A stretch of DNA of 42,089 bases from a virus (taxonomy: Duplodnaviria; Caudoviricetes), in IMG/VR virus record IMGVR_UViG_3300033232_000036, positions 1 to 42,089 of that record; one strand, written 5' to 3'. Shown one piece after another: positions 201-40,329 of this stretch. Numbering within the stretch: position 1 is the stretch's first letter; the number at the start of each line of letters is the position of its first letter. The notes below the pieces were generated by a model. That model had not been told where the DNA came from, ran no database searches, and was given only the letters and a program-made list of their open reading frames with translations. The translations under genes and the position numbers were made by a program.

Positions 201-293
201 GGCGAAGTCTTCATATACCTACCAATCAATTGAGGTATTGTATAACAACCAACTTAAAACGGTTGAAACAACATAAACGAGATGAGCAAAATG
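201..293 (+). promoter_or_regulatory. Dispersed early promoter-leader cassette, copy 1
   Basis: BRE-like GGCGAAG, TATA-like TCATATAC, 30-nt core GTATAACAACCAACTTAAAACGGTTGAAAC (240-269), then AACATAAACGAGATGAGCAAAATG (RBS and start). Confidence 0.85.
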
Positions 294-545
294 TTAGACC
301 AAACAAGAATCGAAATGTTATTAGTGGAATACGGGAACAAAATAAGCGACAACGACCACATTGACCCACAGTTCCGTCATGGTATTGTTGCAGCCCTGCA
401 AAGCGTGTTAGAAATTGACGACGACCAAGTGCGCGAACTTATGAACAAGCACCCAAGAGGACTTAACTTATGGCAGGTACAGGAAGATTTAAGTCCAATT
501 CTGATGGGCGCGCGTTATGAAGGCACGTACAACACAGAGGAATAA
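291..545 (+). CDS. Hypothetical early protein (paralog of 10090-10260)
   Basis: ORF directly after cassette 1. FRHGIVAALQSVLEIDDDQVREL resembles YNRGTVDAYQHILKLTDEQMQQL in the 10090 ORF. Confidence 0.75.
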   Translation: MLDQTRIEMLLVEYGNKISDNDHIDPQFRHGIVAALQSVLEIDDDQVRELMNKHPRGLNLWQVQEDLSPILMGARYEGTYNTEE

Positions 546-549
546 GTGC

Positions 550-1200
550 ATGACAGAAACCAACACACAAAACGAGTTTTATGGGGCGCTATTACGCGCC
601 CAACAGCGAATCGGCACTATCGCCAAGGACAAAACCAATCCATACCATCAGAGCAAATATGCAGATATAAACGATATGCTCGAAATGGTTAAGCCAATCT
701 TGAACGACGAGGGCCTGCTATTAATGCAGCCGTTGACCCACGTCGGCGGAGCGCCGGCAATCTCTACGATTATTATGGGGTACGGCACTTCCATAGAGTA
801 TGAAACGGTTATTCCCTTCCGAGATGACCCACAAAAGGCCGGAAGCGCGATAACGTATTTCCGCCGGTACGCGCTGCAATCTATCCTCGCCTTGCAGGTT
901 GAGGACGACGATGGCGAGGCTGCAAGACTTAAGATAAAAACCGAAGCCAAACCAGCCGCCAAGGCAAACCCCTCACAGGGCACCAAGTTCACGCCGGCAT
1001 CCGAACACACGCCAGACACAGAGGCGCCAAGCGAAGAACCTGCCGAGGCGGTTATAATCCCGACCTGCTCAATATGTCAAGCGCCAATGAAGCCTACGAG
1101 GGCAGGTAGTAAAAACCCGTTCTTCTGCAAGCACGGAAGCGCATGGGGCGTTCCTGTATGGCCACAAGAGGGCGTAAATGAAACGGGGTCAACTGAATGA
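550..1200 (+). CDS. erf: ERF-family ssDNA-annealing protein with C-terminal Zn-finger-like tail
   Basis: NPYHQSKYADI...DPQKAGSAITYFRRYALQSILAL..EDDDG are ERF hallmarks, followed by a Pro/Ala linker and CxxC...CxH. Confidence 0.9.
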   Translation: MTETNTQNEFYGALLRAQQRIGTIAKDKTNPYHQSKYADINDMLEMVKPILNDEGLLLMQPLTHVGGAPAISTIIMGYGTSIEYETVIPFRDDPQKAGSAITYFRRYALQSILALQVEDDDGEAARLKIKTEAKPAAKANPSQGTKFTPASEHTPDTEAPSEEPAEAVIIPTCSICQAPMKPTRAGSKNPFFCKHGSAWGVPVWPQEGVNETGSTE

Positions 1201-1246
1201 CCCCTGACGAACTTAATACAGCAGCGTCCCGCGAAGCGGCGGAACT

Positions 1247-1283
1247 GTCGCAATGCGAAATCCACTAAAACAAGGATTGAAAC
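1247..1283 (+). CRISPR. Solitary 37-nt CRISPR repeat (no array, no cas genes)
   Basis: GTCGCAATGCGAAATCCACTAAAACAAGGATTGAAAC is 37 nt with an AATCC/GGATT stem and the 3' handle ATTGAAAC. The 3' part matches, from memory, the Methanosarcina-type Cas6b repeat (...ATCCACTAAAACAAGGATTGAAAC). It lies between erf and the DUF488 gene. Confidence 0.85.
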
Positions 1284-1340
1284 ACCATAAACGACGAAAT
1301 TAACGAGGCTGTGGCAAAAGTGGTTCAATTCGGCATAGAT

Positions 1341-1733
1341 ATGACACCTATTAACAAAGGGTTTTATACGATAGGCTATGGAGATTTAACCGAAGAACAA
1401 TTCCTCTCCAAACTGACCAAGGCAAATATCACTCTTTTAATTGATGTCAGGAGCGCCCCCGACACCGAAAGGTTCGGTCGGCGTCGAATGATGGCCTTGC
1501 TAGGAAACAAGTACAGGTCAGTCCCTAAACTCGGCGGCCTGCAATACAGCCCGTTAAGATATGCGCTATGGAGGGACAATGTGCTTGCTGAACTTGAAAG
1601 TATCCACCAGTGGAGTAAATGGGGCGCCGTGTGCGTGATGTGCGCGGAGGCCGAACCGAACAGGTGTCACAGAACGTATTTTATTGGCAGGGCAATGAAA
1701 GAATTATATACTACCACACCAATTCATCTATGA
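1341..1733 (+). CDS. DUF488 family protein
   Basis: YTIGYG, LIDVRSAP, LGG and MCAEAEPNRCHR motifs typical of DUF488. Confidence 0.85.
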   Translation: MTPINKGFYTIGYGDLTEEQFLSKLTKANITLLIDVRSAPDTERFGRRRMMALLGNKYRSVPKLGGLQYSPLRYALWRDNVLAELESIHQWSKWGAVCVMCAEAEPNRCHRTYFIGRAMKELYTTTPIHL

Positions 1734-1949
1734 CGAGCAGGCTAAACACCCAAACCATTTTTAATAAACAAAGTTCCTCGCGGTTTTGTTTATGTACTAC
1801 CCAACCCCGTCGATAACATCGGCACACGATGAAAAGTATCCTGCTCGCACTCTCTTTTCTTATTGTTTTTAACTCCCCTATCCCCCCAAACCCCCCATAA
1901 GCGGTGCAAAACGCTATACTTTTATACCGTCGGCTGCATCTGTGTTGTA

Positions 1950-2177
1950 ATGGTTGATACGATAAATACACACACAGCCACACGAGGGAATAACGGGCTC
2001 GTGATATATATTCCACAGCCCTTAAGGGTAGATAGTAAAAACCCAATCGGGCCAAACATGGCTATCACAATAACCGTCGACGGCGACCGAATGATAATTG
2101 AACCGACGGGCGCGAAACCGTTGGAAAAAAACCCCCGAAATTACAAATCTGAAAACATCTTCGGGCGACACTTTTAA
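1950..2177 (+). CDS. AbrB/SpoVT-like small DNA-binding protein (probably leaderless)
   Basis: GNNGLVIYIPQPLR...ITITVDGDRMIIEP swapped-hairpin pattern. A TTTATA box at ~1920 lies about 25 nt before the ATG. Confidence 0.7.
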   Translation: MVDTINTHTATRGNNGLVIYIPQPLRVDSKNPIGPNMAITITVDGDRMIIEPTGAKPLEKNPRNYKSENIFGRHF

Positions 2178-2232
2178 TTTATGGTATATTGAAATTTTAA
2201 CTACTAAATATAATAAAATTAAAGAGGACAGC

Positions 2233-3024
2233 ATGGCAACACAAATCTTTAAACTCAAAAATCTCAAGGCGGCGCCATATAACCCGCGTGTGAAACAAGT
2301 GGCAGGAATGCCAGTATACGAACAAATCAAGGCCAGCATTGAAAAGTTCGGTTACGTTGATTTAATGGTCGTCAACCGGCGGAACAATGTTATTATCGGC
2401 GGGCACCAACGCGCGCCGGTGCTCGCTGACCTAGGATATACCGAGGTTGAATGTGCCGTGGTAGACCTTGACGAGCCGATGGAAAAGGCGTTAAACATTG
2501 CACTTAATAAAATCGATGGTAAGTGGGACGAGGCGTTGTTAAGTGCGTTGGTTTATGAATTGGGCGCGTTGCCTGCGTTCGATTATAATACAATCGGCTT
2601 CACCCTTTCCGAAGTTGACGACCTTGCGTTGTTCCTCCCCCCGCTAGAAACCGGCGACGATGCTGATAACCAGTTATACCCAAACGGGTCCGAAGATGGC
2701 GCTGCGATTGCCATGGGGCCAGACGGTACACCGGCGCGCGGCGTAACACAAGACGGCCAGCAGGCCCCTATCGAGTACAGCCGGCCAGAGTTCAAAGATA
2801 TATGCGACACGTTTGCACAGAACAAAACATCAGAGAAGAATACGAATTGGTTTTATGTAGAGTATTACGAGAATAATGAGTTATTTGAAGAACTCGCGGT
2901 ATTGCTGAAGTCGCATTTAAAGGGCCAGTCAGGGCATGAAATACACGGCGACACGTTTGCATTAATGGTCAAACAGTTCGCTGCCAACCCTGCATCTCCC
3001 ATCACGGAGCACACGGAGGGGTAA
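2233..3024 (+). CDS. ParB/Srx N-terminal domain protein
   Basis: LKAAPYNPR...SIEKFGY..MVVN...IIGGHQR...EKALNIALNKIDGKWD is the phage ParB-like domain normally paired with DNA-modifying enzymes. RBS GAGGA. Confidence 0.9.
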   Translation: MATQIFKLKNLKAAPYNPRVKQVAGMPVYEQIKASIEKFGYVDLMVVNRRNNVIIGGHQRAPVLADLGYTEVECAVVDLDEPMEKALNIALNKIDGKWDEALLSALVYELGALPAFDYNTIGFTLSEVDDLALFLPPLETGDDADNQLYPNGSEDGAAIAMGPDGTPARGVTQDGQQAPIEYSRPEFKDICDTFAQNKTSEKNTNWFYVEYYENNELFEELAVLLKSHLKGQSGHEIHGDTFALMVKQFAANPASPITEHTEG

Positions 3025-4442
3025 TGCGGTTCGAGGAACGAAACGTATGCACAGAGTGCGTCCAGCATTCGGGGTCTTGCGGCGGTGTAAATGCCTGCCA
3101 TGAGATACGGGCCCCGCTGCGCCCCTTTGATGGGATTAGATTAACAGCGGATGGCTTTGATTGTGCGCTGCCACTAACATTCGATTCACATTCGGTCTGT
3201 TCTTTTGGTTGTCTGTATTGTTTTGCGCCGAACCTAATAACACACCGCGCCGCTAGTCAGGCCCCCATCGGTCAGACGAGCCTGCAAAAGATTGAACAAA
3301 TATTCGCGGGTACCGGCGGAAAGTCGGCGGCGTTATATCGCAAAGCGCTCAAATATGACAACTTAAAAAACGGGTATCCGTGCCCCGTGCAAGTGGGCGG
3401 ACTATGTGACCCGCTGGACAACATTGAGCGAAATCAGGGTTGGTTTCTTAAGTTCGTTGAGTTGGCGAAGAAATACAACCAGCCGGTCAGGATTAGTACA
3501 AAAGGTAATCTTTTTTTAGAGCAGGAATATCTCGATGCAATAGCGGACCGGCCCGAATTGTTTTGGATTACCTACTCCATCATATCCATTGACGATGACA
3601 TAATCAAGCAGGTTGACAAGCGCGCCCCAGTTGCGAGCGACCGTTTGCAATCCATGCAAAATCTGACCGACATAGGCGTAAAGACCGGCTTAAGATTCCG
3701 GCCCATGATTCCGGGGATAAGCGATGCAACCAAAAACTATCCTAACGCATACGCAGACCTAATCAACGCAGCAGCCGACGCAGGGGCGACGTCATTGAGT
3801 TACGAAGTCGCGTTCCTCCCCGGAGCAATGACTCCCGACCTGCACGCGCGCTGGGAGGAAATAGAGCACATAGCCGATAAACCACTGATGAAGATTTACG
3901 AATCCTTCGGGAAGAAGCAAAGTTGCAACCGGCCGTCGCACGCATGGACAGAGGAAATTATGCACGCAGTATATAGAGTTGGCAAGTCGCGCGGCCTGCA
4001 AATAGGCGTCAGTGACCCCGTATGGAAACAGTTGAACGAGTGCGGGTGTTGTTGTGGTATCACCGAGGACGACCCCGTTTTCGGTAATTGGCAGACGGAG
4101 AGTGCTACGAATCAACTTCTCATCGCAAAGCGCGACGGTAAGTTTCTTCGGGCGTCGGATATTGTGCCTGCATGGGCACGCGAAGCAAAAGCCGACTTAA
4201 TGACGAACCCCGGAACGGGTCCGCTAGTACAATTTAAACGCCGACATGAAATGTGGAGCGATAAACTGGAAGAACTGTGGGAAAATCCGGCCAAGGAGCG
4301 TTCACCGCTGCAATATTTTCAAGGGGCACTCATGCCAGTTAAGCGGGATGCGGAAGGAAATTTAGTTTATAAATACGTTGGTTTAAAGCGGGTACACCCC
4401 AAAAAGACTCCGTACTGGACAGTAAATAACGTTAAGGAGTGA
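3024..4442 (+). CDS. Radical SAM protein (spore photoproduct lyase-like)
   Basis: CSFGCLYC (CxxxCxxC), then DP, ISTK and RFRPMIPG segments. Extra Cys clusters occur at the N-terminus and at CGCCCG. TAATG overlap with the ParB gene. Confidence 0.85.
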   Translation: MRFEERNVCTECVQHSGSCGGVNACHEIRAPLRPFDGIRLTADGFDCALPLTFDSHSVCSFGCLYCFAPNLITHRAASQAPIGQTSLQKIEQIFAGTGGKSAALYRKALKYDNLKNGYPCPVQVGGLCDPLDNIERNQGWFLKFVELAKKYNQPVRISTKGNLFLEQEYLDAIADRPELFWITYSIISIDDDIIKQVDKRAPVASDRLQSMQNLTDIGVKTGLRFRPMIPGISDATKNYPNAYADLINAAADAGATSLSYEVAFLPGAMTPDLHARWEEIEHIADKPLMKIYESFGKKQSCNRPSHAWTEEIMHAVYRVGKSRGLQIGVSDPVWKQLNECGCCCGITEDDPVFGNWQTESATNQLLIAKRDGKFLRASDIVPAWAREAKADLMTNPGTGPLVQFKRRHEMWSDKLEELWENPAKERSPLQYFQGALMPVKRDAEGNLVYKYVGLKRVHPKKTPYWTVNNVKE

Positions 4443-4969
4443 TTGGTTTGGATTATAAATGTCTCGGGAAAACGGAAGAACTAAGGGCGCGCCGATACCA
4501 AGTGCTCGTCGCATTCCTTAAAGGTGGGAATCCGGCCGAAATTGCAAAGGGCACAAATTTCCCCATTCGGCAGGTATACAGCGACATCGATTACCTTCGG
4601 CGCAATCCGTTGAATACGTTGCCCGTTGATATAGTGCGCGATTTTGGGGTGTCGTTTTACGAAATGAAAGTTACCGAATTGGAACGCCGTGCGCAATTAA
4701 TTAAAGACCCGAACTCTACATTGTGGCTCGGCATACAGAAATTGATTAAGGAATATAAATCGGAAATCTTAAAGTTGGTCGGTGCCAGCGTGGAACGAAT
4801 GGAATTAAGCGGAAAAGTCGAGCACACAGTGACGGCCACGTGGTTGAGCGATGTGCCCGATATGCTGGAATCCGAGGTAATACCAACACGGCTGAAGAAA
4901 CTTAAAGCCGAGCAGGCCGTCAAGGCGCTTGAAGATGCGGCCGATGAGGGAAGGCTGGAAGTGGAATAA
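4439..4969 (+). CDS. terS: Probable terminase small subunit
   Basis: N-terminal HTH (PAEIAKGTNFPIRQVYSDIDYL), a MELSGKVEH tail, and position immediately upstream of TerL. Confidence 0.7.
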   Translation: MIGLDYKCLGKTEELRARRYQVLVAFLKGGNPAEIAKGTNFPIRQVYSDIDYLRRNPLNTLPVDIVRDFGVSFYEMKVTELERRAQLIKDPNSTLWLGIQKLIKEYKSEILKLVGASVERMELSGKVEHTVTATWLSDVPDMLESEVIPTRLKKLKAEQAVKALEDAADEGRLEVE

Positions 4970-6474
4970 TGGGATGTAGCAGTTTCATTCAAAAACCCAC
5001 TCCTCGGGTCAGTATTAAACGGGGAATAACCGTCACGGGGCCGGATGGCCCTGTAAATCTTAATTTATTCGGCGTATCAAAATATATTTTAGGATACGAT
5101 AAACTCGGGTCTGAGCATGAGCAATGGTGCGCCGACCTGTATGACGTGGTGACGGTACAGGGCATAAGAAAATTATTGCTGTTGAAACCGCGTGGCACCT
5201 TTAAGAGCACGGTTTACACCGTGGCACTCCCCATTTATCTCCATCTCGGCGACCCGACCCTGCGAATCCTAATCGCCAGTTCGGTCGGCGAAAATGCAAA
5301 ACGTTTTTTATCGGAGATTACAGGGCATTACCTGCGGAATGACAGGTTGACCGAGGTATACAGGCAATTAGGATATAATGGATGCCCTGTGGACCCTAAT
5401 GCGTCCCTAGTTACAAGCTTGCGACTAACCAACTGCACCAAGATACAAAAGGAACCCAACATCAACACGACGGGGTATGGTTCAAGCATCGTTTCGCAAC
5501 ATTACGATGTTATAATTGTTGACGATATAGTGGACAGGAGCGACAGGGAGAGCGACGCCGTCAGGGAAGGAAAAAAGAAATGGTATCGTGACCTCGCCTC
5601 GCTGCTGGAACCCGACGGGCTATTGTTGACGGTTGGAACCCGCTGGCATAGCGATGACACTTATCACCACATAATCGACGAACTGAATCCGCAGCACACC
5701 GAAGAAAATAGGTTTCATGTGGAGATTGAGGGCGCGTACATGGACGAAGCGTGCACCGTGGCACGGTTTCCGCGCATATTAAGCATTGATAAACTAGAGG
5801 AGCTTAAGATAGATAAAAGTCTGCCCGAGTTCGCTGCTAATTATATGAATATGCCACTAGCGACCGAATCGCAGATATTTAAACTCGGGGATATGGGATT
5901 TTTTGATTATGCCGCTTATGCAAACGCATTCCCCGCGTCCGTGTTTGGGTTCTGCGACCCCGCACTCGGCAAGAAGACCGGGGATTATACAACGCTGATA
6001 ACCGGCTCGGTTTCGCCAAGCGGGACGATATATGTGCTGGATGCAATAATCGACAGGCTCATTCCAGATAAAGCACAGGAATTAATAATTCAACAAGGGG
6101 CGGCTGTAAAGTATCATAAACTCGGCATTGAAACAAACGGGTTTCAGGAATTGTTTTTAGATAATATACGAAAAGAGAGCAGCGCGAAACGAATATATCT
6201 CCCATTGGTGCCGGTTACAAATACACAGAATAAGCAGGCGCGCATAGAATCAATACAACCTCTGACAGTTGAGCGCATAGGGCACCCCGCCGTCATACGC
6301 TTCAGAGATGACTGGCGAACGGCGTATCCCTTGTTGATTGACCAATTAACTAAGTTCCCACTGAAAGGCGCCCACGATGACAGTCCCGATGCGTTAGCAG
6401 GGCTCGTCGAGTTGATTCGGGGGAAAGGCGCCAAGACTGCAACCATGCCATACATACTCGGCGGTGGACTTTAA
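4969..6474 (+). CDS. terL: Terminase large subunit
   Basis: Walker A PRGTFKST, Walker B VIIVDD, GTRWH coupling motif, and RNase H-like nuclease motifs DPA...ETNGFQ...HDDSPDAL. Confidence 0.95.
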   Translation: MGCSSFIQKPTPRVSIKRGITVTGPDGPVNLNLFGVSKYILGYDKLGSEHEQWCADLYDVVTVQGIRKLLLLKPRGTFKSTVYTVALPIYLHLGDPTLRILIASSVGENAKRFLSEITGHYLRNDRLTEVYRQLGYNGCPVDPNASLVTSLRLTNCTKIQKEPNINTTGYGSSIVSQHYDVIIVDDIVDRSDRESDAVREGKKKWYRDLASLLEPDGLLLTVGTRWHSDDTYHHIIDELNPQHTEENRFHVEIEGAYMDEACTVARFPRILSIDKLEELKIDKSLPEFAANYMNMPLATESQIFKLGDMGFFDYAAYANAFPASVFGFCDPALGKKTGDYTTLITGSVSPSGTIYVLDAIIDRLIPDKAQELIIQQGAAVKYHKLGIETNGFQELFLDNIRKESSAKRIYLPLVPVTNTQNKQARIESIQPLTVERIGHPAVIRFRDDWRTAYPLLIDQLTKFPLKGAHDDSPDALAGLVELIRGKGAKTATMPYILGGGL

Positions 6475-6537
6475 ACGGGGGCTTTTAAAGGCTCCTTTTT
6501 ACAATTATATCGGGATAAAATCCTTGGATTTGATAAT

Positions 6538-6792
6538 ATGATAGACCTAAACGCAGACTCAAACGGCCACACGGCCAATACATGGCACATAATCCGATTA
6601 AACGGGGCGAATGTGCCGGCAATGGTTGATAGCAATGGACATAGAATTTCACTCGCAGAGAATAGGATAAAATCAGACGGGACAAGCATGTACTCGGTGC
6701 GCTGTAAAGAAAAGGGCTGCAAGTTTCATTCGTTTGTGCACTTAAACGAATGGGGCGTGATACCGCTGCCATTTTACGACAATTATAGATGA
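6538..6792 (+). CDS. Small Cys/His-containing hypothetical protein
   Basis: ORF between terL and portal with a CxxxxCxFH motif. Confidence 0.6.
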   Translation: MIDLNADSNGHTANTWHIIRLNGANVPAMVDSNGHRISLAENRIKSDGTSMYSVRCKEKGCKFHSFVHLNEWGVIPLPFYDNYR

Positions 6793-6846
6793 TAGATACA
6801 ATAATATGCAATGTGAACAAATTATCATATACACAGTGAGTTCCCT

Positions 6847-8259
6847 ATGACCCCAAAAATGAAACAAACCCTAGCACACGCAGCCAAAACCGCAAACGGC
6901 GCAACAGACGCGGACGTGGTTGCTCTAATGGCTGTCGCCCAGCGGTATGCGAGCGCGGGCGTGATGAATATGACCCCCCGCGACCAAAGCGGCGACACGA
7001 CGCTTTATGGCGAGTATAGGGTGACAAACAACAACACATTTGAGAAATATGCTCAGTTAAGCATAATCACTCCCCATGTCTTTATTCCTCTAATTAAACT
7101 TGGATTAAGCACCGTATCGGGTTTGAAATTAGAATTGCCCCCTGAGCCGATGGGCACCGGCAGCGACGACCTGCTAATCAAAATGACTGAATGGGCACAA
7201 TATATCGGGCTCGCGAACAAAGTTCAAAATATAGCGCGTTGCATGATGCGCGATGGGACGACCGTTGTATCCATCGGCCGCGAACCCATTGACACAACCA
7301 TCATGAACAGGGATATTATAAACCCCACAAATGGAATCACCGCGCTGAGTGTGCTCCCTATGCAATACATGACCCTGCTGACCGAGGCTGAAAGTACCGG
7401 CGTTAAAAAAGGTGTATTGATTAAGGGCGACCCAACAATCGCAATCCTTAACGAGGCAAAAAAGACAGCCGATGCGGGTTTGGTTCGGTTTGAGCGCGCT
7501 GAATTTGCCCTGTTCCGCCTATTCAACGAAGGGTATTTCATGAATGATATATTGGGCCGCGAAACTTACGGTATTTATGGCGCCTCGTTGATTGAGCCTA
7601 TTACCCGCCCGATAAAGGGTTTGCTTGACCTGACCGAAGGATTTGGGGCATATATGCGCCGTTATGGAATTAATCGGCTTAACATAAACCTGCCAATCGT
7701 TGAAGATTTACGGCGGGAAGGGCGCTACGAAGAAGCCAAAACAATTCTACAAGACACAATCGGCGCGATGAAAAAACTCGGCGCTCATGAAGATATGGTA
7801 TCAGGTGGTGCTGACGTTACTGCAATCTCGTCCGGCGCGGTTCCGTCGGTCAGGGACATGAAGGAAAGTTACGAAGCTGATATACAAGTCGGCTTATTAC
7901 AAAGCCCGTTAACGATGGGTAAGGCCAGCGGGACAACGTATGCAAGCGGGTTCCTAAGCGAAGCCGACCGTATGGTAATCGTTGAAAGTATTCAAGCGAT
8001 TATATTAGACGTGGTACAGGCCGAAATTATAAACCCACAATTAATCGCATACGGTGCCACGAATGGCGCTGTAATAGTTACGGCTGTAGACCTCACCGTG
8101 CCAGTAATTGACCCACAGGTCATGACAGACGCACGGCTCAATAACGATATCACCATGGGCGAATACCGAGCCAGCCTCGGCCTGTCTGCGACCAAACCAG
8201 AGGAAGCGAAAGGCAACGAGGCCGCTGACAACGACGCAATCGATGATGAAGAAGAATAA
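6847..8259 (+). CDS. Probable portal protein
   Basis: 470 aa, located after terminase and before the MuF gene. Contains YGIYGASLIEP, TYAS and C-terminal ITMGEYRASLGL, followed by an acidic tail. Confidence 0.8.
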   Translation: MTPKMKQTLAHAAKTANGATDADVVALMAVAQRYASAGVMNMTPRDQSGDTTLYGEYRVTNNNTFEKYAQLSIITPHVFIPLIKLGLSTVSGLKLELPPEPMGTGSDDLLIKMTEWAQYIGLANKVQNIARCMMRDGTTVVSIGREPIDTTIMNRDIINPTNGITALSVLPMQYMTLLTEAESTGVKKGVLIKGDPTIAILNEAKKTADAGLVRFERAEFALFRLFNEGYFMNDILGRETYGIYGASLIEPITRPIKGLLDLTEGFGAYMRRYGINRLNINLPIVEDLRREGRYEEAKTILQDTIGAMKKLGAHEDMVSGGADVTAISSGAVPSVRDMKESYEADIQVGLLQSPLTMGKASGTTYASGFLSEADRMVIVESIQAIILDVVQAEIINPQLIAYGATNGAVIVTAVDLTVPVIDPQVMTDARLNNDITMGEYRASLGLSATKPEEAKGNEAADNDAIDDEEE

Positions 8260-8264
8260 ACATT

Positions 8265-9794
8265 ATGGCGGCTGAAGGCGATGTTTTAAAGCAAGAACAT
8301 TTATTTGTTCGTGAAATTACGCAGGCGTTTGAGCGCGCAATCTCGCGATTAAACGTGCATAAAAAAGTTAACCTTCGCAGCGCCGTCGGGCGTACCACTG
8401 TAATCAACAAACTCCATAAACGAACCGAGGCCGTTTACATGCTCGGCAAAGGCAACGCGCGCCAAGACATTAAAACCGCGCTTAAGCGAATTTCCGCAGC
8501 CAAGGCCGCCCCCACATTCTCGGGAGAGATAGCCGAGGGTGTTGTATTGGGGCCCTTTGAGGATAAACTTGTTAACAAATATACGCAGCAGTCCGTCGCC
8601 TATATGGATTTTATGGCGAAAGACGTACAGGCTAAAATGAACGATTCGTTACAAGAGGGCTTCCTTTTAGGCGAATCGGTGCCAAAGTTAACCAAGCGGG
8701 TTGAAAGTGTTTGGGGCTCGAATAAAGTTAGGGCAACACGGTTCGCACGTACTCAAACAAATTCGGTTTATAATGCAGCCCACGTCCACACGTACACCGC
8801 CGAACCGCTGATTGAGTGTGTTCAGTTTGTCGCTCGCCTTGATAGCCGTGTGTCCGAACAGTGCCGGTCTTATGATGGTACAATATGGAAATTAAGCGAT
8901 AGCAGCCTTCGGCGTCCACCCCTTCATTTCAACTGTAGAAGTAGATTAGTTGCATGGCCCTACTCATATCCGGGCAACCGAGATTTTACGAAGATGTCTG
9001 ATGGTACAACCAACACATACAGCCAACTCGCTGAGGTGAACAAACAGATAAAAACCTTCAACGAAAAGTATTGGAAGGAAATTAAGGTCACTGTCCGCGC
9101 AACGCGCGCCGGTAAGGTTGGTACCGTTGCAAGCACGGCAGCACCGAAGTTCACTACGGAAGAAATTGACTTTATGAAGTACGAATTTGAAACAAACGAA
9201 ATGAAGGAGGACATGTTTGACCGGCTGTATTCAAAAATGTTAACCGATGAGGAAAAATCCGCGGTTAAGGCATATACCGGAAGCGATTACCGGCTGATGA
9301 ATGAATATCTCCGCACAGGCAAAATCCCTGAAAATTACCTTCGCCATAATATATCATTAGAGGAAGTGACCGCGCGTGCACAAGCGTTAATTGATAACAT
9401 GGATTCCGCCTTTTCAAAAGCAAAGTTAAGTAAAAACATGACCGTACACCGTGGGATTTCCGCCGATGTTGCCGAGGGCATGTTAAAGACGGGCCGGCTG
9501 GAATATGCAGGGTATTCCTCAACAAGCGAGAGCCTTAAAACCGCGCGGTACTTTGCACGGGAAAACTCCGTTTCCGCTTTAGGTGAAGCGGGTTACAATT
9601 TAAAATATAAAGATGTTTTAGTATTTGACGTTAAAAAGGGTGCCAAGGGCATCCATTACGGCGGGGGCGAAGCCGAGATTATATTGGATAGGGGGCTGAA
9701 ACTTGAAGTGATTAAAATACAATTAGTCGAGGATGTGGAGTACTTATTAGGCCGGCACGACGCATACAGGTTTATTCATTGCAAGATTATTTAA
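8265..9794 (+). CDS. MuF/SPP1 gp7-like head morphogenesis protein fused to a C-terminal ADP-ribosyltransferase toxin domain
   Basis: MuF motifs FARTQT, D.RVSEQC..DG and PPLHFNCRS. The C-terminus has AYTGSDYRLMNEYLR, VHRG, YSSTS and EAE, the R-S-ExE signature of VIP2/C2-like ARTs. Confidence 0.9.
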   Translation: MAAEGDVLKQEHLFVREITQAFERAISRLNVHKKVNLRSAVGRTTVINKLHKRTEAVYMLGKGNARQDIKTALKRISAAKAAPTFSGEIAEGVVLGPFEDKLVNKYTQQSVAYMDFMAKDVQAKMNDSLQEGFLLGESVPKLTKRVESVWGSNKVRATRFARTQTNSVYNAAHVHTYTAEPLIECVQFVARLDSRVSEQCRSYDGTIWKLSDSSLRRPPLHFNCRSRLVAWPYSYPGNRDFTKMSDGTTNTYSQLAEVNKQIKTFNEKYWKEIKVTVRATRAGKVGTVASTAAPKFTTEEIDFMKYEFETNEMKEDMFDRLYSKMLTDEEKSAVKAYTGSDYRLMNEYLRTGKIPENYLRHNISLEEVTARAQALIDNMDSAFSKAKLSKNMTVHRGISADVAEGMLKTGRLEYAGYSSTSESLKTARYFARENSVSALGEAGYNLKYKDVLVFDVKKGAKGIHYGGGEAEIILDRGLKLEVIKIQLVEDVEYLLGRHDAYRFIHCKII

Positions 9795-9830
9795 AGTATA
9801 ACATACATAAACCAACATAGAGGAAACACC

Positions 9831-9992
9831 ATGGCAAAACCAACAAATAAAGAAAAATATGAGCGCTTCGTAATTGATGGGATGGACGGCGTAACTTTTA
9901 GCCAGTCCCCAAAGTTAACACCGGCGCGGGCCAAGGCGAATGACGCATTGGTTGCAGCACGGCAGAAGAAGCAGGGCATCAAAACCAAGTAG
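9831..9992 (+). CDS. Small basic protein (53 aa), candidate immunity or partner of the MuF-ART
   Basis: Not in the supplied ORF track. Translated manually as MAKPTNKEKYERFVIDGMDG...KTK, with RBS GAGGA. Confidence 0.6.
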   Translation: MAKPTNKEKYERFVIDGMDGVTFSQSPKLTPARAKANDALVAARQKKQGIKTK

Positions 9993-10002
9993 TTCGTTCC
10001 AA

Positions 10003-10092
10003 CCGCTGTCTTCATATACACACCAATCAATTGAGGTAGTGTACAACAACCAACAAAAAGGTTGAACCAACATAAACGAGATGAGCAAAATG
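10003..10092 (+). promoter_or_regulatory. Dispersed early promoter-leader cassette, copy 2
   Basis: TTCATATAC box, core GTACAACAACCAACAAAAAGGTTGAACC (10041-10068), then AACATAAACGAGATGAGCAAAATG. Confidence 0.85.
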
Positions 10093-10260
10093 ATACAAGA
10101 AACCGAGATTTTAGAAGCATTGAAGGCAGCAATCCGTCATTTAAACGGCACACACGGGGCATACAGTTTAGGATACAATCGGGGGACGGTTGATGCATAC
10201 CAACACATTTTAAAATTAACAGATGAACAGATGCAACAACTTTACACAGCGGAGGCATAA
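10090..10260 (+). CDS. Hypothetical early protein (56 aa; paralog of 291-545)
   Basis: Manual translation MIQETEILEALKAAIRHLNGTHGAYSLGYNRGTVDAYQHILKLTDEQMQQLYTAEA. Confidence 0.75.
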   Translation: MIQETEILEALKAAIRHLNGTHGAYSLGYNRGTVDAYQHILKLTDEQMQQLYTAEA

Positions 10261-10263
10261 ACA

Positions 10264-10635
10264 ATGAGCGAATTACCTATAATTTCAAGTTATACGAGCG
10301 AACAGGCAGCAGAAGACGGGTATCTGTTAGACATTACAACAATAAACCCCGTTTGGGACAAGGGGATTTTTAAGTATGTTACAATGACCTTAATGGACGA
10401 GCATGGGTATGTAGACGGCGACGGCGAAGGGGAAAGTACGGTTAATATTCCAAACCTGCTTGACCTGCTTAACCAAGCGAACGAGATAGTACGCAAACAG
10501 TCCCACGGGTTCAAGGACATGAAGGAGCGGCTTTACACCGGCTTGGTAGAACTACCAAGCGCGCGCCGCCTCCGTATCTACATTGAGATGAACGAGCACG
10601 GCAAATATACCATAATGCTTCCCGAAGACAATTAA
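10264..10635 (+). CDS. Conserved viral hypothetical protein (DUF6573-like)
   Basis: N-terminal SYTxEQAxEDGxLxD and C-terminal TIMLPED pattern, recalled for this family. RBS GGAGG. Confidence 0.65.
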   Translation: MSELPIISSYTSEQAAEDGYLLDITTINPVWDKGIFKYVTMTLMDEHGYVDGDGEGESTVNIPNLLDLLNQANEIVRKQSHGFKDMKERLYTGLVELPSARRLRIYIEMNEHGKYTIMLPEDN

Positions 10636-10697
10636 ATCGCAGGAATTTATATCGGGGTTTTTGTTAAATGGGGCACTTAAAAGCCCCCGTTTCTACA

Positions 10698-10789
10698 AGC
10701 GATATCCTTATATACATACCAATCAATGAGAGCATGTACAACAACCAACTTAAAACGGTTGAAACAACACAAACGAGATGAGTAAAATG
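10698..10789 (+). promoter_or_regulatory. Dispersed early promoter-leader cassette, copy 3
   Basis: TTATATAC box, core GTACAACAACCAACTTAAAACGGTTGAAAC (10736-10765), then AACACAAACGAGATGAGTAAAATG. Confidence 0.85.
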
Positions 10790-10966
10790 GAAAATACACA
10801 AAAATTAATATGCCCAGAATGTGGCAGCGACGAAACTGGTTGGTCTTTCAACGACGACGATGAATTTGTAGCAGGCTGCGACAACTGCGAACACACATGG
10901 TTGATTAGGGCCCAAGAACAATACCGCCTTATCCAGCAGCAGGTTAGGGAAAAGCGGGGTAACTAA
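10787..10966 (+). CDS. Small Zn-ribbon protein
   Basis: CPECGS...CDNC, directly after cassette 3. Confidence 0.75.
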   Translation: MENTQKLICPECGSDETGWSFNDDDEFVAGCDNCEHTWLIRAQEQYRLIQQQVREKRGN

Positions 10967-10967
10967 A

Positions 10968-11144
10968 ATGACCGAGCGTTACGAATGCCCTGCCTGCGGA
11001 GAGAAGAACACAATGTGGCCCGTTTACGTGGGCCGCAAACGGTTTTATCGTTGTAGCGAGTGTGACACAAACTACTCGTCTAGGAAACTGGACAAGATTT
11101 GGGGAGCAAATCCGGCGCCAATCGTTACGGCGCTCGGCTGTTAA
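10968..11144 (+). CDS. Small Zn-ribbon protein (58 aa)
   Basis: Manual translation MTERYECPACGEKN...YRCSECDT, followed by a T-run. Confidence 0.7.
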   Translation: MTERYECPACGEKNTMWPVYVGRKRFYRCSECDTNYSSRKLDKIWGANPAPIVTALGC

Positions 11145-11238
11145 CTTTTTTTACAATAACCAAAACGGGCGAATGGGATTGGAAATGTTTAGACTGTTTG
11201 CATACGTGGGTTGAAGAAAATACAATGGAGGAACTAAA

Positions 11239-11397
11239 ATGAGTAAACATCATCAAAAGACACCAAGGGAACCACTCGGATTTAAGCCGGTTTTAAGGGC
11301 CATAGTGAGGATTGACTGCCCGACCTGCTCATACCCTAGGGGCATAAAGTGCGAGGACGGCGTGGTCATGTGTGGTATGTGTGGGGGGATACAATGA
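11239..11397 (+). CDS. Small Zn-ribbon protein (52 aa)
   Basis: RBS GGAGG, CPTC...CGMCG, and an ATGA overlap with the next gene. Confidence 0.7.
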   Translation: MSKHHQKTPREPLGFKPVLRAIVRIDCPTCSYPRGIKCEDGVVMCGMCGGIQ

Positions 11398-11804
11398 TAA
11401 ACCCAATATCTCCTCAATATCGGGGATTATGTGCGGACGGCACGTGGGCATATGGCAGGCTCACAATAGTTGATGACGGGCAGGCCAGCACCAATAAAAT
11501 TGAGGCGGGGTACTATATCTCGAACCATGCAGGCGCCCTCTATGCATACAACGTCATCCCTAAAACTGCGGGCGTGTTAACCTTGGTCAAGGACGCGCTC
11601 GGCGGGGATGTTTACGTTGGTGACCAGATAGAAACAGAAACGGTCATTGGGAAAGAGTTAATCCTGTGGACTGTTGGCATTGGGGCGAACGGGTGTTTTG
11701 TATGTACGAGCCCAGAGAAGCCATTTGGGATATTTTATCTCAACACCATCGCGGCAATAGGCATCGTTGTTGGAAATATACATGAACCGGTTGAGCAAGA
11801 CTGA
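11394..11804 (+). CDS. YopX-family protein
   Basis: YRG....W.YG.L, then KD..G.DVYVGD.I, then VVGNIHE. Confidence 0.8.
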   Translation: MINPISPQYRGLCADGTWAYGRLTIVDDGQASTNKIEAGYYISNHAGALYAYNVIPKTAGVLTLVKDALGGDVYVGDQIETETVIGKELILWTVGIGANGCFVCTSPEKPFGIFYLNTIAAIGIVVGNIHEPVEQD

Positions 11805-11814
11805 GGAAAATAAG

Positions 11815-12132
11815 ATGATATACCGAATAAGTGGGGATTTTATCCCCGAAACATTTAACGAATGCCAACAGGAACGATGCGAAAAGTGCGTTTATGTATC
11901 ATATGTGTGTCGGATACGGGTGCAAGGATTGATGATGATTGATTGTAGCACCTGCCAAACTCGAAACCTATTGGTAATTATGCGCGAAACCGCTGACATG
12001 TACGAGAAGCCGGCATTACTGCGTGGGTTTCTCCAAATTGCAAAATTGGCCAAAGAGGCAGATACAAAAGTTGACCGAAAGAGCGCGCGTTGGTTGGCTA
12101 TATTGGGCGGTCGCCGCGGCATGATACACTAA
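11815..12132 (+). CDS. Cys-rich hypothetical protein
   Basis: RBS GAGG, with CxxxxCxxC and CxxC motifs. Confidence 0.65.
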   Translation: MIYRISGDFIPETFNECQQERCEKCVYVSYVCRIRVQGLMMIDCSTCQTRNLLVIMRETADMYEKPALLRGFLQIAKLAKEADTKVDRKSARWLAILGGRRGMIH

Positions 12133-12149
12133 AAACATGGAGATATAAA

Positions 12150-12869
12150 ATGGAACAAACAGTAGACATTGAACAGGATTTCAAAATAGAACCGAACATG
12201 GCAGGCACCGAAGTTGAGGCCAGTGGCGAAATATATACAATGCGGGTAATGGAAGACCCCGATAAACAGGGGGGGTTCTTTGGGCGCTGGGTGCCAAAGA
12301 AGAAGAAGGGGCTAATAGTACAGACCCATATTAAGCACGGACCCGAGCCGAATGTTATATGGGCGGAAACAACCCTGTCGGAAATGGGCGCCGGTGGGGC
12401 GTCGAATGTGGTGTCAAGTAGGGTCAAAACGGCTGACGACATGGTGCTCGCTGTCAAGAAGGCAATTCAAACAATCGTGGGCGGCGCCGCTGAATTAATG
12501 ACCGATAAGCAATTAGGCCGGTTGATGCTTGGCTCGTTACGGCGCGCCGTGCACGATGGAGTATTGTCAGAAGCACTCGCAAAGCGTATTTTGATGGAGA
12601 GGGTGCAGATATCCGTCGCCGCCGTCGGTAAATATACAATCGTAGAGTTAACCCACGGCGGGCTCACGTTTCACGGGCTTGCATCACGGCACCCTGACGA
12701 CCCGATAAACAGATTTGAAGGGATTGGGCGTGCGTATTCAAGAGCATTTAATCAGTTATGTGCTCGACTTAAATTCGGGTACCGGCACGACATAATTCTA
12801 AGAATTAAGTCACAGGAATATACGATTACATCGACCGAACTCGAATCTTTAATCTCGAAGGACTGTTAA
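12150..12869 (+). CDS. Hypothetical protein with C-terminal Rv2632c/DUF1876-like (dsRBD-fold) motif
   Basis: GLASRHPDDPINRFEGIGRAYSRA matches the G.A..hP.D......G...A..RA pattern. RBS GGAGA. Confidence 0.6.
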   Translation: MEQTVDIEQDFKIEPNMAGTEVEASGEIYTMRVMEDPDKQGGFFGRWVPKKKKGLIVQTHIKHGPEPNVIWAETTLSEMGAGGASNVVSSRVKTADDMVLAVKKAIQTIVGGAAELMTDKQLGRLMLGSLRRAVHDGVLSEALAKRILMERVQISVAAVGKYTIVELTHGGLTFHGLASRHPDDPINRFEGIGRAYSRAFNQLCARLKFGYRHDIILRIKSQEYTITSTELESLISKDC

Positions 12870-12896
12870 CTATATTTCCCAGATGGGTGACTTGCT

Positions 12897-12987
12897 CCGA
12901 AAGGCTCATATACTTACAGGCTAATGAGAACATGTACAACAACCAACTTAAAACGGTTGAAACAACACAAACGAGATGAGTAAAATG
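12897..12987 (+). promoter_or_regulatory. Dispersed early promoter-leader cassette, copy 4
   Basis: CCGAAAGG BRE, TCATATAC box, core at 12934-12963. Core and downstream sequence are identical to copy 3. Confidence 0.85.
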
Positions 12988-13296
12988 GAAGTAAAACAAA
13001 TCACAGCAGCACGAAAAATCGTACAGGAAGAATTAGAAACACTATGCACCGAACTCGGTATTGCACCGAGTTTCGTTGTCGGTGTTGTACAGGGGCGCGG
13101 GGATGGTGACGGAGTATGGGTTGGAGTAGAGGTCCGCACAGACGGGGACTTATATGAGGCATTTTACGATGATTGGGTAAACCCATACGCCCTTGAAAGC
13201 CAAGAAGCAATCGCAACCAAGATAGACGAAGCGCTCGGTGGCGAAACGGGCCGGTACTTTGAAAAGTACGGTGGTGGGGTTATTTACATTTTTTAA
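12985..13296 (+). CDS. Hypothetical early protein
   Basis: ORF directly after cassette 4. Confidence 0.75.
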   Translation: MEVKQITAARKIVQEELETLCTELGIAPSFVVGVVQGRGDGDGVWVGVEVRTDGDLYEAFYDDWVNPYALESQEAIATKIDEALGGETGRYFEKYGGGVIYIF

Positions 13297-13355
13297 ATAT
13301 AACATCGGCGCGGCCCACACAGGCCCGCCCACATACAAATACGGAGGAACCTAGA

Positions 13356-13745
13356 ATGAACACAGACGCAATTCGCGACGCAGAAACAGAGGCGCTCGCC
13401 CTATCTATTGAATATGTAAAAATATCCGAAATGGCCCGCGCTATTAAAAGCCAAACCACAGCCGACATTGAGCAAGAATGGGAGGACACAGGAAACAAGG
13501 CCATGTCAAACGCAACCAAGCGCAATATTATTGTAGAAAAGGCGCTGAAACAAAGGAACGATTATAACCAGATGATAGAAGCGACACAAAAATTATCTAT
13601 CCGTCAGCGCGAACTTGATATTGAGATTTCGTTTCTTAAGCGCGAGTTTCGGCGCGAAACGGGGCACTGTGCCGAAATCCAAAACATTAATACGTCGTTG
13701 GAATCAATCTCGTCGGATATAAATATATTTTTACAACGAACTTAG
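13356..13745 (+). CDS. Coiled-coil hypothetical protein
   Basis: RBS GGAGG and helical, charged composition. Confidence 0.75.
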   Translation: MNTDAIRDAETEALALSIEYVKISEMARAIKSQTTADIEQEWEDTGNKAMSNATKRNIIVEKALKQRNDYNQMIEATQKLSIRQRELDIEISFLKREFRRETGHCAEIQNINTSLESISSDINIFLQRT

Positions 13746-13755
13746 GGGAATAAAC

Positions 13756-14064
13756 ATGGTGATAAACGCATTAGTGGACAGGTGTCCCGACTGCCAAGTT
13801 GCAGCGGGTCAGCCACACGCAGACAACTGTGACGTCGAGCGCTGCTCGGTATGTGGCGACCAGCGGCTCGGGTGTAACTGCGAAGGGCACGACAAGCAGT
13901 TCGCTCGATGGACTGGCATTTGGCCCGGAGTCGCCGAGGCCGCGCATCTTGGCATAAATTCAAACGAACTATATGAATCAGGGCTCGCCGCGGTGTTATT
14001 TATAAAACCGACTCCGGCTGACGCCGGCGAATGGTTTTTTTCAATTTCGGTACTTTCAACATGA
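13756..14064 (+). CDS. Cys-rich metal-binding protein
   Basis: RCPDC...H..NCDVERCSVCG.QRLGCNC...WTG.WPG. Confidence 0.75.
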   Translation: MVINALVDRCPDCQVAAGQPHADNCDVERCSVCGDQRLGCNCEGHDKQFARWTGIWPGVAEAAHLGINSNELYESGLAAVLFIKPTPADAGEWFFSISVLST

Positions 14065-14111
14065 CCTGATTGATTTAATTACTGGCGATGTGGTTACTGC
14101 GAAAATACTAA

Positions 14112-14498
14112 ATGACGACAATATTGCACGGGCGCGGGGGGCACTTAGAAGTTACGATGGAGCAAACAATGACAGAAAATGACAAGAGCGAACTATTATT
14201 TGAGAACGAAACGGCGATAAAACACGAACGCGGCGGTATGAATGGATGTCGGAATGGCCCGCCAAAGGGATATAAACTGCCCCCTAATAAAGGGCACCAA
14301 TTAAGGGAAAAGCGGTTGGTCGCCATAGTGCACTCTTTGGGGCCGGGAGTATGTAAGCCGACAGATGTATATGTTCAAGCTGGGGGGAGCATGTTCACAA
14401 TAACAAGACGGTTAGTTCGTTTAAAAAACAAAGGGTTAATCAATGGTGCAAACCCGCACAAACATTGGACGTTTTGGCCATTAGAGGAGCAGGAATAA
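14112..14498 (+). CDS. Hypothetical protein, possible C-terminal winged HTH (start may be 14157)
   Basis: PTDVYVQAGGSMFTITRRLVRLKNKGLI resembles a wHTH. Confidence 0.55.
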   Translation: MTTILHGRGGHLEVTMEQTMTENDKSELLFENETAIKHERGGMNGCRNGPPKGYKLPPNKGHQLREKRLVAIVHSLGPGVCKPTDVYVQAGGSMFTITRRLVRLKNKGLINGANPHKHWTFWPLEEQE

Positions 14499-14869
14499 TG
14501 ACACCACAGAGATTAAGGATACGGGCTCGCCAAGCCGCGCGGGTTGCTGCAATTAAACAAGACGAACTTCAGGCGATAGAGATATTGGAGGGCCTGCCAG
14601 ATAACCCGCGGATAATTCGTCGGGATGGAAGCAGCACATTCAGTATGAAAATGCGCGACCTTGGGAAGGGCATGACGTTAAGTCCGCGATATCATGACTT
14701 TCAATTTCAGTACGGCATTCTCATTGACATAATCAGAACGCGCGGCCTTGATTATTTCGTGGCTGTTATGGGAAAGATATGCAATAATCCCAGATTAAAC
14801 CATCGCGGCGAACTGATAATATTCCATAAAGAAGTGTTGCAAAACGTGTCAGAGGGGCTGGGATTATAG
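14498..14869 (+). CDS. Hypothetical protein
   Basis: TAATG overlap with the previous gene and RBS GGAG. Confidence 0.65.
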   Translation: MTPQRLRIRARQAARVAAIKQDELQAIEILEGLPDNPRIIRRDGSSTFSMKMRDLGKGMTLSPRYHDFQFQYGILIDIIRTRGLDYFVAVMGKICNNPRLNHRGELIIFHKEVLQNVSEGLGL

Positions 14870-14886
14870 CACTTAAGGCGGGCATT

Positions 14887-15231
14887 GTGTGCAAGGGAAC
14901 GAAGCGCATTCGTCTTATATGTCCGAAATGCGCGAGTGTGCAACTACATAAGAAGAAGGGCTCCGGTTTGTATGTGTGCAATCGTAACGGATGTACATGG
15001 TCGGGTTTGGCCCCTACAAAGTCTTTCCGGCTTTGGGGCGTATCGGGCCGGATTCCAAACATGGCCAACCCAAAGTCTAACAAATCTAGAGAAGACCGGC
15101 TAGAGGCGTTAAACACGGCTCATAAAGCCGACTTAGCGATAAATAAAAATCAATTGATGCACGAGTGTGATGAAACTGCTTATTTCGTGGCGCTGCATTG
15201 GAATAACTGGGTCCCCCCTCCAACTGTGTAA
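14887..15231 (+). CDS. Basic Zn-finger protein
   Basis: CPKCAS...YVCNRNGCTW, followed by a T-run at ~15240. Confidence 0.6.
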   Translation: MCKGTKRIRLICPKCASVQLHKKKGSGLYVCNRNGCTWSGLAPTKSFRLWGVSGRIPNMANPKSNKSREDRLEALNTAHKADLAINKNQLMHECDETAYFVALHWNNWVPPPTV

Positions 15232-15339
15232 ATAAGATACTTTTTTAACGTTGCAGCCCAATTTAGATTCGCCATTGTCGGCGTTCCATGGGCGGGGGTT
15301 AAACCCCCCGCTTAAATTTTTAAAAATTCACATCGGGCT

Positions 15340-15379
15340 TAAGGTGTTCTTAAATACAATAAGAATATTTATTAGGTAA
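15340..15379 (+). promoter_or_regulatory. Candidate late promoter for the head operon (leaderless)
   Basis: CTTAAATA box about 25 nt upstream of ATG 15379. A GC hairpin GCGGGGG-TTAAAC-CCCCCGC lies at ~15292-15311. Confidence 0.55.
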
Positions 15380-17936: not shown

Positions 17937-17949
17937 GGAGGCACATAGC

Positions 17950-33653: not shown

Positions 33654-33746
33654 GTCGCAATCCTTATATACATACCAATCAATGAGAGCATGTACAACAA
33701 CCAACCCAGAGCGGTTGAACCAACATAAACGAGATGAGCAAATATG
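33654..33746 (+). promoter_or_regulatory. Dispersed early promoter-leader cassette, copy 5
   Basis: Promoter part identical to copy 3. Core GTACAACAACCAACCCAGAGCGGTTGAACC (33692-33721) keeps the stem with a different loop. Confidence 0.85.
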
Positions 33747-37099: not shown

Positions 37100-37173
37100 G
37101 GCAAACCTTCATATATCTTGCAATTAATGAAGAAGTGTACAAATACCAACTTAAAAAGGCGGTTAAAGAGATG
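37100..37173 (+). promoter_or_regulatory. Dispersed early promoter-leader cassette, copy 6 (degenerate)
   Basis: GGCAAA BRE, TTCATATAT box, then GTACAAATACCAACTTAAAAAGGCGGTTAAAGAGATGAGC. Confidence 0.7.
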
Positions 37174-40231: not shown

Positions 40232-40329
40232 AGGCGAAGACCTCATATACACACGGGTCAATTGAGGTATTGTACAACAACCAACTTAAAACGGTTGAAA
40301 CAGCATAAACAAACGAGATGAGCAAAATG
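40232..40329 (+). promoter_or_regulatory. Dispersed early promoter-leader cassette, copy 7
   Basis: GGCGAAG BRE, TCATATAC box, core GTACAACAACCAACTTAAAACGGTTGAAAC (40272-40301), then AGCATAAACAAACGAGATGAGCAAAATG. Confidence 0.85.

Follow-up and report, generated by a model that had tools for sequence, protein, structure and literature searches.

Gene Content and Organization of the Repeat Locus

The window, which is the entire 42,089-nt tailed-virus record IMGVR_UViG_3300033232_000036, has 127-nt direct terminal repeats and a listed CheckV completeness of 59. Searches against Pfam and PHROGs identified a terminase, a Linocin-like capsid protein, tail proteins, a MoxR/VWA pair, ERF and a DUF488 protein among its gene products. 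Near the left end, a small ORF, erf and the DUF488 gene follow the first of seven near-identical BRE/TATA promoter cassettes, which were recognized by alignment and precede gene clusters (Table 1). The gap between erf and DUF488 contains an intact 37-nt CRISPR repeat, found letter for letter where an earlier note on this DNA, made from the sequence alone, had placed it. The repeat is intergenic and in sense orientation, and only a mini-ORF overlaps it. It ends 36 nt short of the DUF488 start codon, a distance equal to the commonest spacer length in the repeat family (310 of 805 spacers).

Table 1. Positions of the solitary repeat, the surrounding genes and the promoter cassettes in the window
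Feature	Position	Strand	Basis or remark
Cassette 1 promoter core: BRE-like GCGAAG, TATA-like TCATATA; predicted operon driver	202..221	+	Archaeal reading from motif
Cassette 1 (202-281), leader, similar to 1258-1294; hairpin 246-265, 5-bp stem, 10-nt loop	240..281	+	
Cassette 1 leader end: handle-like GTTGAAAC, A-rich tail after	262-269	+	
87-aa small ORF without family; first gene 3′ of cassette 1	282..545	+	Pfam, PHROGs
erf: ERF single-strand annealing protein, C-terminal Cys/His motif	550..1200	+	PF04404, E 2e-22; alignment
Mini-ORF, 23 codons; overlaps erf stop, TAA end within repeat loop; may be chance	1197..1268	+	
Solitary 37-nt CRISPR-DR7/type I-B-family repeat	1247..1283	+	Rfam; letter-for-letter match
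Repeat parts: predicted stem-loop	1259-1278	+	Fold
Repeat parts: predicted Cas6b cut	1275/1276	+	By analogy, PMC3479195
Repeat parts: predicted handle	1276-1283	+	Cut by analogy, PMC3479195
36-nt guide-length DUF488 leader; cassette-like tail first, likely ribosome site GAGG at 1305-1308	1284..1319	+	
DUF488 gene, 137 aa, intact	1320..1733	+	PF04343; start common to two other called relatives
First five-T run after cassette 1; likely operon end, putative terminator	1758..1762	+	
Cassette 2 (10003-10080), leader	10041..10080	+	Hairpin, 8-nt loop; handle-like end changed
Cassette 3 (10698-10777), leader	10736..10777	+	Hairpin and handle-like end intact
Cassette 4 (12896-12975), leader	12934..12975	+	Hairpin and handle-like end intact
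Cassette 5 (33654-33743), leader	33692..33743	+	Stem kept; loop and handle-like end changed
Cassette 6 (37099-37170), leader	37137..37170	+	Hairpin and handle-like end lost
Cassette 7 (40234-40320), leader	40272..40320	+	Hairpin and handle-like end intact

The earlier note had also described a DUF488 gene downstream of the repeat, which is present and intact, with its start corrected to, most likely, the codon at 1320. Relatives that are 67% and 56% identical to the window protein share this start, and a length of 137 aa is found in 9 of 13 members of the DUF488 protein cluster (P0123). The ATG at 1197, which overlaps the erf stop, shares the DUF488 frame, to which the repeat contributes two stops; the possibility that the repeat is a gene-breaking insertion was nevertheless rejected, as all three called proteins (the window's and those of the two relatives) begin at the 1320 codon. 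The DUF488 protein matches the candidate defence families PDC-M45B and PDC-M19A (PADLOC). Its structural model has a pLDDT of 94 and the residues C108, C116, H117 and R118 are invariant. Searched against the PDB, the model matched nothing at E<=0.001, the best likeness being a weak one, to an RNA triphosphatase domain as one example of the cysteine phosphatases (E 0.012, TM 0.46), that serves as a lead only.

No promoter of the repeat's own was found within 250 bp, the best cassette-type site upstream ranking 571 of 42,069. The nearest cassette is cassette 1, approximately 1 kb upstream, with zero T5 runs in between. Since no T5 run occurs between cassette 1 and 1758 and no cassette-type promoter stands at the repeat, a single transcript would extend from cassette 1 through the 87-aa ORF, erf, the repeat and DUF488.

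Identity, Copy Number and Predicted Fold of the Repeat

CRISPR-DR7 was the sole Rfam match in the window, aligned to the full model (1-37) at 47.6 bits, where the gathering score is 37, and with an E-value of 8.4e-7. The claims that the virus has neither a second full repeat nor a cas gene both held: the next best ungapped match on either strand has 14/37 mismatches and lies far from the repeat, a gapped search of the window with the repeat's 3′ 24 nt returned this copy only, and no cas family was matched by 60 ORFs compared with Pfam and PHROGs or by 28 ORFs compared with PADLOC. A candidate second, degenerate repeat at 41675 (23/37, within a gene) was put down to chance by a rough binomial estimate. 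The locus therefore has the properties that define a solitary repeat unit (SRU), namely a match to a known repeat, no second or partial repeat in its flanks, an intergenic position and a cas-free mobile element as its carrier.

In its sequence context, the stem of the repeat is predicted to form with pair probabilities of 0.79-0.98, and the predicted 8-nt handle starts at 1276, as had been claimed. The fold prediction also pairs the upstream flank with the first bases of the repeat. Repeat positions 2-12 form a palindrome that is absent from the nearest host repeat.

Repeat Family and Candidate Hosts

The exact 37-mer was absent from GTDB contigs, JGI metagenomes and the phage collection, so that host and subtype could not be named by a repeat search as the earlier note had envisaged. 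The repeat's 3′ 26 nt are present in 27 stretches, both archaeal and bacterial. Its 3′ 23 nt are the same as in host array repeats, and the 5′ part varies among the host repeats too. Of 26 distinct host array repeats, the closest are two at 33/37, both from the ANME-1 class (that of G001, a Methanophagales MAG). In the class of the Methanosarcina MAG G004, none of 392 genomes has the repeat within 3 mismatches. The suggestion that the repeat points to a Methanosarcina-like host was thus sustained in part, the ANME-1 class fitting at least as well and neither class supplying an exact host repeat.

Compared with the nearest host repeat (G401), the viral repeat differs at positions 8, 10, 11 and 12 and has the same 3′ 25 nt. 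The four differences turn positions 8-12 into the reverse complement of positions 2-6, as only 6 of 1,024 five-mers would do, and a single template-switch event could account for all four.

That this is a genuine CRISPR repeat of the I-B family, as proposed, is borne out by the CRISPR-DR7 match and by the genes flanking its sister arrays. In the ANME-1 class, matches to the window were found in 17 of 79 genomes; they lie in repeats in 16 of these and in a capsid gene in the other one. Sister arrays adjoin cas8b/Csh1, cas7/Csh2, cas5b, cas3, cas4, cas1 and cas6b in 4/4 ANME-1-class contigs scanned, these being four with genes beside sister arrays, out of 12 stretches and exclusive of the array contigs of G401. 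One further contig carries a RAMP gene, which makes type III use possible. In the Methanosarcina class, sister repeats adjoin I-B cas7/cas3 in two genomes.

Capsid relatives were found in both classes: 13 proviral loci, spread over 12 Methanosarcina-class genomes, have them at 57-62% identity, and one ANME-1-class contig has one at 56%. The repeat family is found in 2/12 of the provirus-bearing Methanosarcina-class genomes, at 28-29/37, and one genome of this class (G206) combines a capsid-related provirus with a repeat-family array beside I-B genes. Members of this provirus family (L240-L275, 12 Methanosarcina-class genomes) have the virion module in common with the window, and not the early region. 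Comparison of 805 host spacers with the virus gave no match, and no spacer-like match was confirmed by DNA search in the ANME-1 class or, for window positions 1284-21280, in the Methanosarcina class. Because neither an exact host repeat nor a matching spacer was found, we infer both host and subtype; the host is likely a methane-cycling archaeon, of the ANME-1 or the Methanosarcina class, and it is to methane-cycling archaea that the repeat narrows the host of this unclassified tailed virus.

Dispersed copies of the repeat family were also encountered. Two archaeal MAG contigs (L013 and L028) carry many single copies among non-cas genes, including those for a prenyltransferase and a large repeat-rich protein, and several of these copies have a degenerate repeat 36-37 nt upstream, with a conserved stretch between. 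Other IMG/VR contigs carry the same repeat family as a two-repeat mini-array (L002, 1487-1596; L006, 211-320) or as a lone repeat (L004, 1487-1523).

Relatives of the Virus and Integrity of the Locus

Relatives of ERF (62%) and DUF488 (67%) are each reported on a 51,265-bp contig and probably belong to the same virus. Searches of IMG/VR, metagenomes and MAGs may have omitted records very near the window's genome. ERF, DUF488, terminase and capsid queries of IMG/VR gave no close relative with DNA, and in a set of 82 loci the repeat core was matched with 5 mismatches at best and the cassette was absent. A metagenome search yielded two unrelated AT-rich ERF contigs, and the ERF relatives in MAGs are distant. 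The repeat is found in 0/13 capsid-related proviral loci, which are distant, temperate and also without erf, DUF488 and the cassette, and in 0/3 loci of the DUF488 subfamily, likewise distant relatives.

As the element is known from one record only, an assembly chimera of the virus with a host CRISPR array was considered, and is very improbable. The right flank is of viral type, with a cassette-like tail and a ribosome site, and neither flank matches the CRISPR loci compared. The left flank, at 46 nt, is longer than all 805 spacers, which measure 30-41 nt apart from one of 22. The 127-nt terminal overlap additionally suggests a long assembly word.

Promoter Cassettes and the Kinship of Their Leaders to the Repeat

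The genes that follow most cassettes are small, of no known function and candidates for an anti-defence role; in archaeal viruses, shared or repeated early promoters mark such genes, according to the available part of PMC11065993. The cassettes run into leaders in which arms of CAACC/GGTTG with loops of 8-10 nt are kept in 6/7 cases, where 0.16 would be expected by chance. In four leaders the loop is 10 nt, as in the repeat, and is followed by the GTTGAAAC end.

The genome's top match to the cassette-1 leader is the repeat's 3′ half together with the next 11 nt, scoring 41 where the next locus scores 30 (6,765 windows). This score was reached by 1/300 simulated genomes and by 0/20,000 constructs in which a random tail was added to the repeat. 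The 11 nt 3′ of the repeat agree with the cassette tail at 10/11 positions in the same register. Without these nucleotides the likeness is weaker, with 0.8% of random 37-mers scoring as well as the repeat against the cassette-1 leader. The 21-nt cassette core has four sites within 4 mismatches in 1.70 Mb of loci. Two of these sites, both in archaeal MAGs, are degenerate repeats (18/21 in L013; 17/21 in L028) followed after 36-37 nt by an intact repeat, on loci that had been pre-selected for repeats. Counter to a kinship of leader and repeat, CATAAAC occurs 15 times on the plus strand, also in front of unrelated starts, the hairpin is gone from cassette 6, and the handle-like end is altered in cassettes 2 and 5. 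An mRNA-stabilising or operator role is an alternative explanation of a 5′ hairpin. The leader was also considered as the repeat of another array and rejected, with no Rfam match, no exact copy in IMG/VR and none in 5 host genomes. On balance, the leader and the repeat locus are likely of common ancestry, and six of the leaders may be degenerate repeat units.

One account of this kinship is that the repeat is a neutral relic, a host repeat that entered a former cassette leader by recombination at the TTGAAAC end common to both, with the neighbouring ERF as a possible aid, and that has no selected function. The register of the tail, unmatched by random tails, is in keeping with this account, as are the confinement of all four host-repeat differences to positions 8-12, where one template switch would perfect the palindrome, and the absence of the repeat from all relatives examined. 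Those relatives, however, are distant and temperate and have neither erf nor DUF488, and a relic is rather unlikely for a repeat whose 3′ 25 nt are the same as in the nearest host repeat, whose ends are exact, and which lies in sense orientation with no gene broken.

A more far-reaching account, which we regard as improbable, is that early-gene control in this virus was built from a CRISPR repeat. The cassettes would then be degenerate repeat units and the 1247 repeat their full-length member, a hairpin and handle of the Cas6b type would stand at the start of most early transcripts, and either repeat mimics would arise from up to seven sites or host Cas6b would act as an mRNA processor. If the leaders are indeed worn repeats still recognised by host Cas6b, the virus would have made an early regulatory element, present in multiple copies, out of a CRISPR repeat.

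A Putative RNA Decoy

In the explanation that we tentatively prefer, and which falls a little short of probable, the repeat is transcribed from cassette 1, is cut by host Cas6b at the predicted site and most likely serves as a targetless RNA decoy by which Cas6b and subunits of Cascade are kept occupied. Strong early transcription, cleavage, loading and inhibition are all predicted steps. Cassette 1, predicted to be early, would drive co-transcription of the repeat, and host Cas6b would cut the transcript between 1275 and 1276 to give two products. The first would be the erf message with the 5′ part of the repeat at its end, which could hold Cas6b. The second would start with the 8-nt handle and run on through the guide-length leader of 36 nt into the DUF488 message, and I-B Cascade could load it without a 3′ handle. 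Its guide would match the virus's own locus only, and as this match is flanked by the repeat in place of a PAM, a loaded complex should be harmless to the virus.

These steps have precedents in sources that were available in part. Cas6b of M. maripaludis cleaves a single 37-nt repeat, leaving a AUUGAAAC handle (PMC3479195), and in the I-B system of Haloferax the 5′ handle is required and the 3′ handle dispensable (PMC4326828). With RacrIF1, inhibition comes from the RNA upstream of the cut, the handle-side product alone not being inhibitory, and RacrIC1 is transcribed together with a protein gene that precedes it (PMC10651486). Given that the upstream product of RacrIF1 inhibits and that I-B tolerates a missing 3′ handle, either product is a candidate here. 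The earlier proposal that the handle and the downstream piece could sequester Cas proteins has the upstream location of the inhibitory RNA in the one dissected Racr against it (PMC10651486) and the tolerance of I-B systems for crRNAs without a 3′ handle in its favour (PMC4326828).

The full-length Rfam match, single copy, sense orientation without a broken gene, in-context hairpin and guide-length leader all argue for a decoy. On the other side, the predicted pairing of the upstream flank with the repeat's first bases could hinder coating by Cas7, and solitary copies of the repeat family are scattered in host chromosomes, so that solitary occurrence does not by itself mark a copy as an anti-CRISPR. 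As a candidate RNA anti-CRISPR (Racr) the element keeps the I-B-family identity, solitary state, intergenic position and predicted hairpin described above, and is short of an exact host repeat and a promoter of its own.

The leader is exactly of guide length and finishes at the start codon, which is conserved, and this would also suit a Cas-sensing mRNA switch. Here, the Cas6b cut would free the DUF488 message, and Cascade seated on the handle and the following 36 nt would cover the ribosome site, such that production of DUF488 would be confined to conditions in which Cascade is missing or saturated. The matches of DUF488 to PDC-M45B and PDC-M19A suggest that its dose may matter. No precedent was found in the literature searched, however, and a 36-nt spacing could well arise by chance; we consider such a switch distinctly unlikely.

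Search for a Guide Target

The earlier note had further proposed that the stretch after the repeat could act as a mini-guide, for which the searches for a protospacer returned no target. No protospacer for the 36-nt stretch was found in 2.71 Mb of loci, the best site having 11/36 mismatches; comparison with 50,697 phage records gave only 4 weak matches, at E>=2; and there was none among the matches listed for 392 Methanosarcina-class and 79 ANME-1-class genomes. A guide directed against the virus's own cassettes was rejected as unlikely, seed position 2 being mismatched and the flanks, AAC or ACC, constituting no recognised PAM.

A short match to a cas gene was found. On 2/4 surrogate I-B contigs, a site within cas6b that is flanked by TTC agrees with the guide at positions 1-5 and 7-9, with 8 bases paired. 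As a null, 5.4% of window 9-mers match at least one contig with TTC and 29% do so with any of 11 PAMs; 0.5% match at least two contigs with TTC, but the cas6b copies are homologous, which makes the null for at least one contig the fairer. The 4 surrogate hosts offered 11 cas upstream regions, and these hold no run longer than 8 except one at a start codon, which is flanked by TGT, outside the 11 PAMs tested. The cas6b seed match, which lies in coding sequence and not in a promoter, is a weak lead.

A mini-guide would consist of the handle and positions 1284-1319, loaded as a crRNA against a competing virus or silencing a host cas gene in the manner of a Cracr. In favour of this, the stretch is of guide length, I-B crRNAs do not need a 3′ handle (PMC4326828, available in part), and cas6b holds the TTC-flanked seed match. 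Against this are the lack of a protospacer in the loci and phage records searched, the homology of the two coding matches and the chance rates given above, the absence of any longer run upstream of cas genes, the TGT-flanked exception apart, and the want of a second repeat. We consider a mini-guide distinctly unlikely.

Comparison with Known Systems

Solitary repeats in viruses are an established class: 2,103 viral SRUs have been reported, archaeal hosts included (Camara-Wilpert et al. 2023, PMC10651486, consulted in its available portions). The SRU table of that study has 20 rows with the core of this repeat family, typed I-B or III-C. The sequence of the present element was not found in nine supplementary files of the study. 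The solitary-repeat class is thus already catalogued, this repeat family included, and this element is not on the published list. Like an SRU or Racr as described there, the element is one intergenic host-type repeat in a cas-free virus, and it is operonic as RacrIC1 is; unlike those selected there by a promoter within 250 bp upstream, it has none at the repeat. Racr are often found near acr genes (an enrichment in the same source), and among the neighbours of this repeat no Acr-named family was matched in Pfam or PHROGs, the 87-aa ORF being without family. The Racr tests seen in the accessible text concern bacterial I-C, I-E, I-F and V-A systems, with no archaeal or I-B test among them, and kinship of a repeat to the leaders of a virus's own promoters, as in this virus, is not described there.

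The preprint on viral crRNA-like regulators (Cracr; bioRxiv 10.1101/2024.10.29.618823, partial text) offers a second likeness, in that a viral repeat is followed by a guide-length stretch and I-B is among the predicted targets. In contrast to Cracr, no comparable promoter match was found here in the surrogate hosts, and the string 'archae' is absent from the main text of the preprint. Host CreR/CreA mini-arrays and repeat-like RNAs are further guide-type relatives (bioRxiv 10.1101/2023.03.03.530964, in part). A Cracr/CreR-like regulator should pair over 9 or more PAM-proximal bp with the promoter of a cas or toxin gene; no such pairing was found in the cas upstream regions of the surrogate hosts, and the TTC match of 8 bp falls inside cas6b. 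Viral mini-arrays (PMC11656645; PMC6858448; both in part) are similar in placing a host-type repeat in an archaeal virus and in depending on host Cas proteins; however, they have at least two repeats and spacers against related viruses (PMC11656645), as opposed to one repeat and no target found here. The cassettes resemble the early regulatory sequences of archaeal viruses in the available text of PMC11065993, in that one BRE/TATA cassette is repeated before clusters of mostly small genes without known function. They differ in running into a leader that resembles the 3′ half of a CRISPR repeat, and the terms 'hairpin', 'Racr' and 'UTR' are absent from the main text of that paper. Further related literature comprises PMC9894754 and bioRxiv 10.1101/2025.10.10.680097, each available in part.

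No report was found of a tested Racr from an archaeal virus or methanogen, or for Cas6b-type I-B, in a literature search that mostly had subscription journals outside its coverage, and the search returned nothing on repeat-derived viral leaders or a multi-copy early element derived from a CRISPR repeat. With one repeat, a predicted cut site and known Cas6b genes in the candidate hosts, the element is a compact test case.

Other Features of the Genome

Several additional features were observed outside the repeat locus. At 2233-4442, immediately 5′ of the terminase region, a ParB-like gene is succeeded by one for a radical SAM protein, possibly as a DNA-modification pair, and at 8265-9794 an ADP-ribosyltransferase domain is fused onto a MuF-like head morphogenesis protein. 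The tail region contains a tandem pair of paralogous genes (28583-30469) encoding products of 309 and 314 aa, with DNA blocks that are 76-83% identical. The non-coding region at 32920-33230 has 28-29-nt inverted repeats of GTTAAC units with an AT-rich core between them and is possibly a replication origin. The MoxR ATPase and VWA genes are located at 33744-38706, and their relatives (52% and 38-40%) on two MAG contigs of the Methanosarcina class (L189 and L190) have a DUF488 gene nearby.
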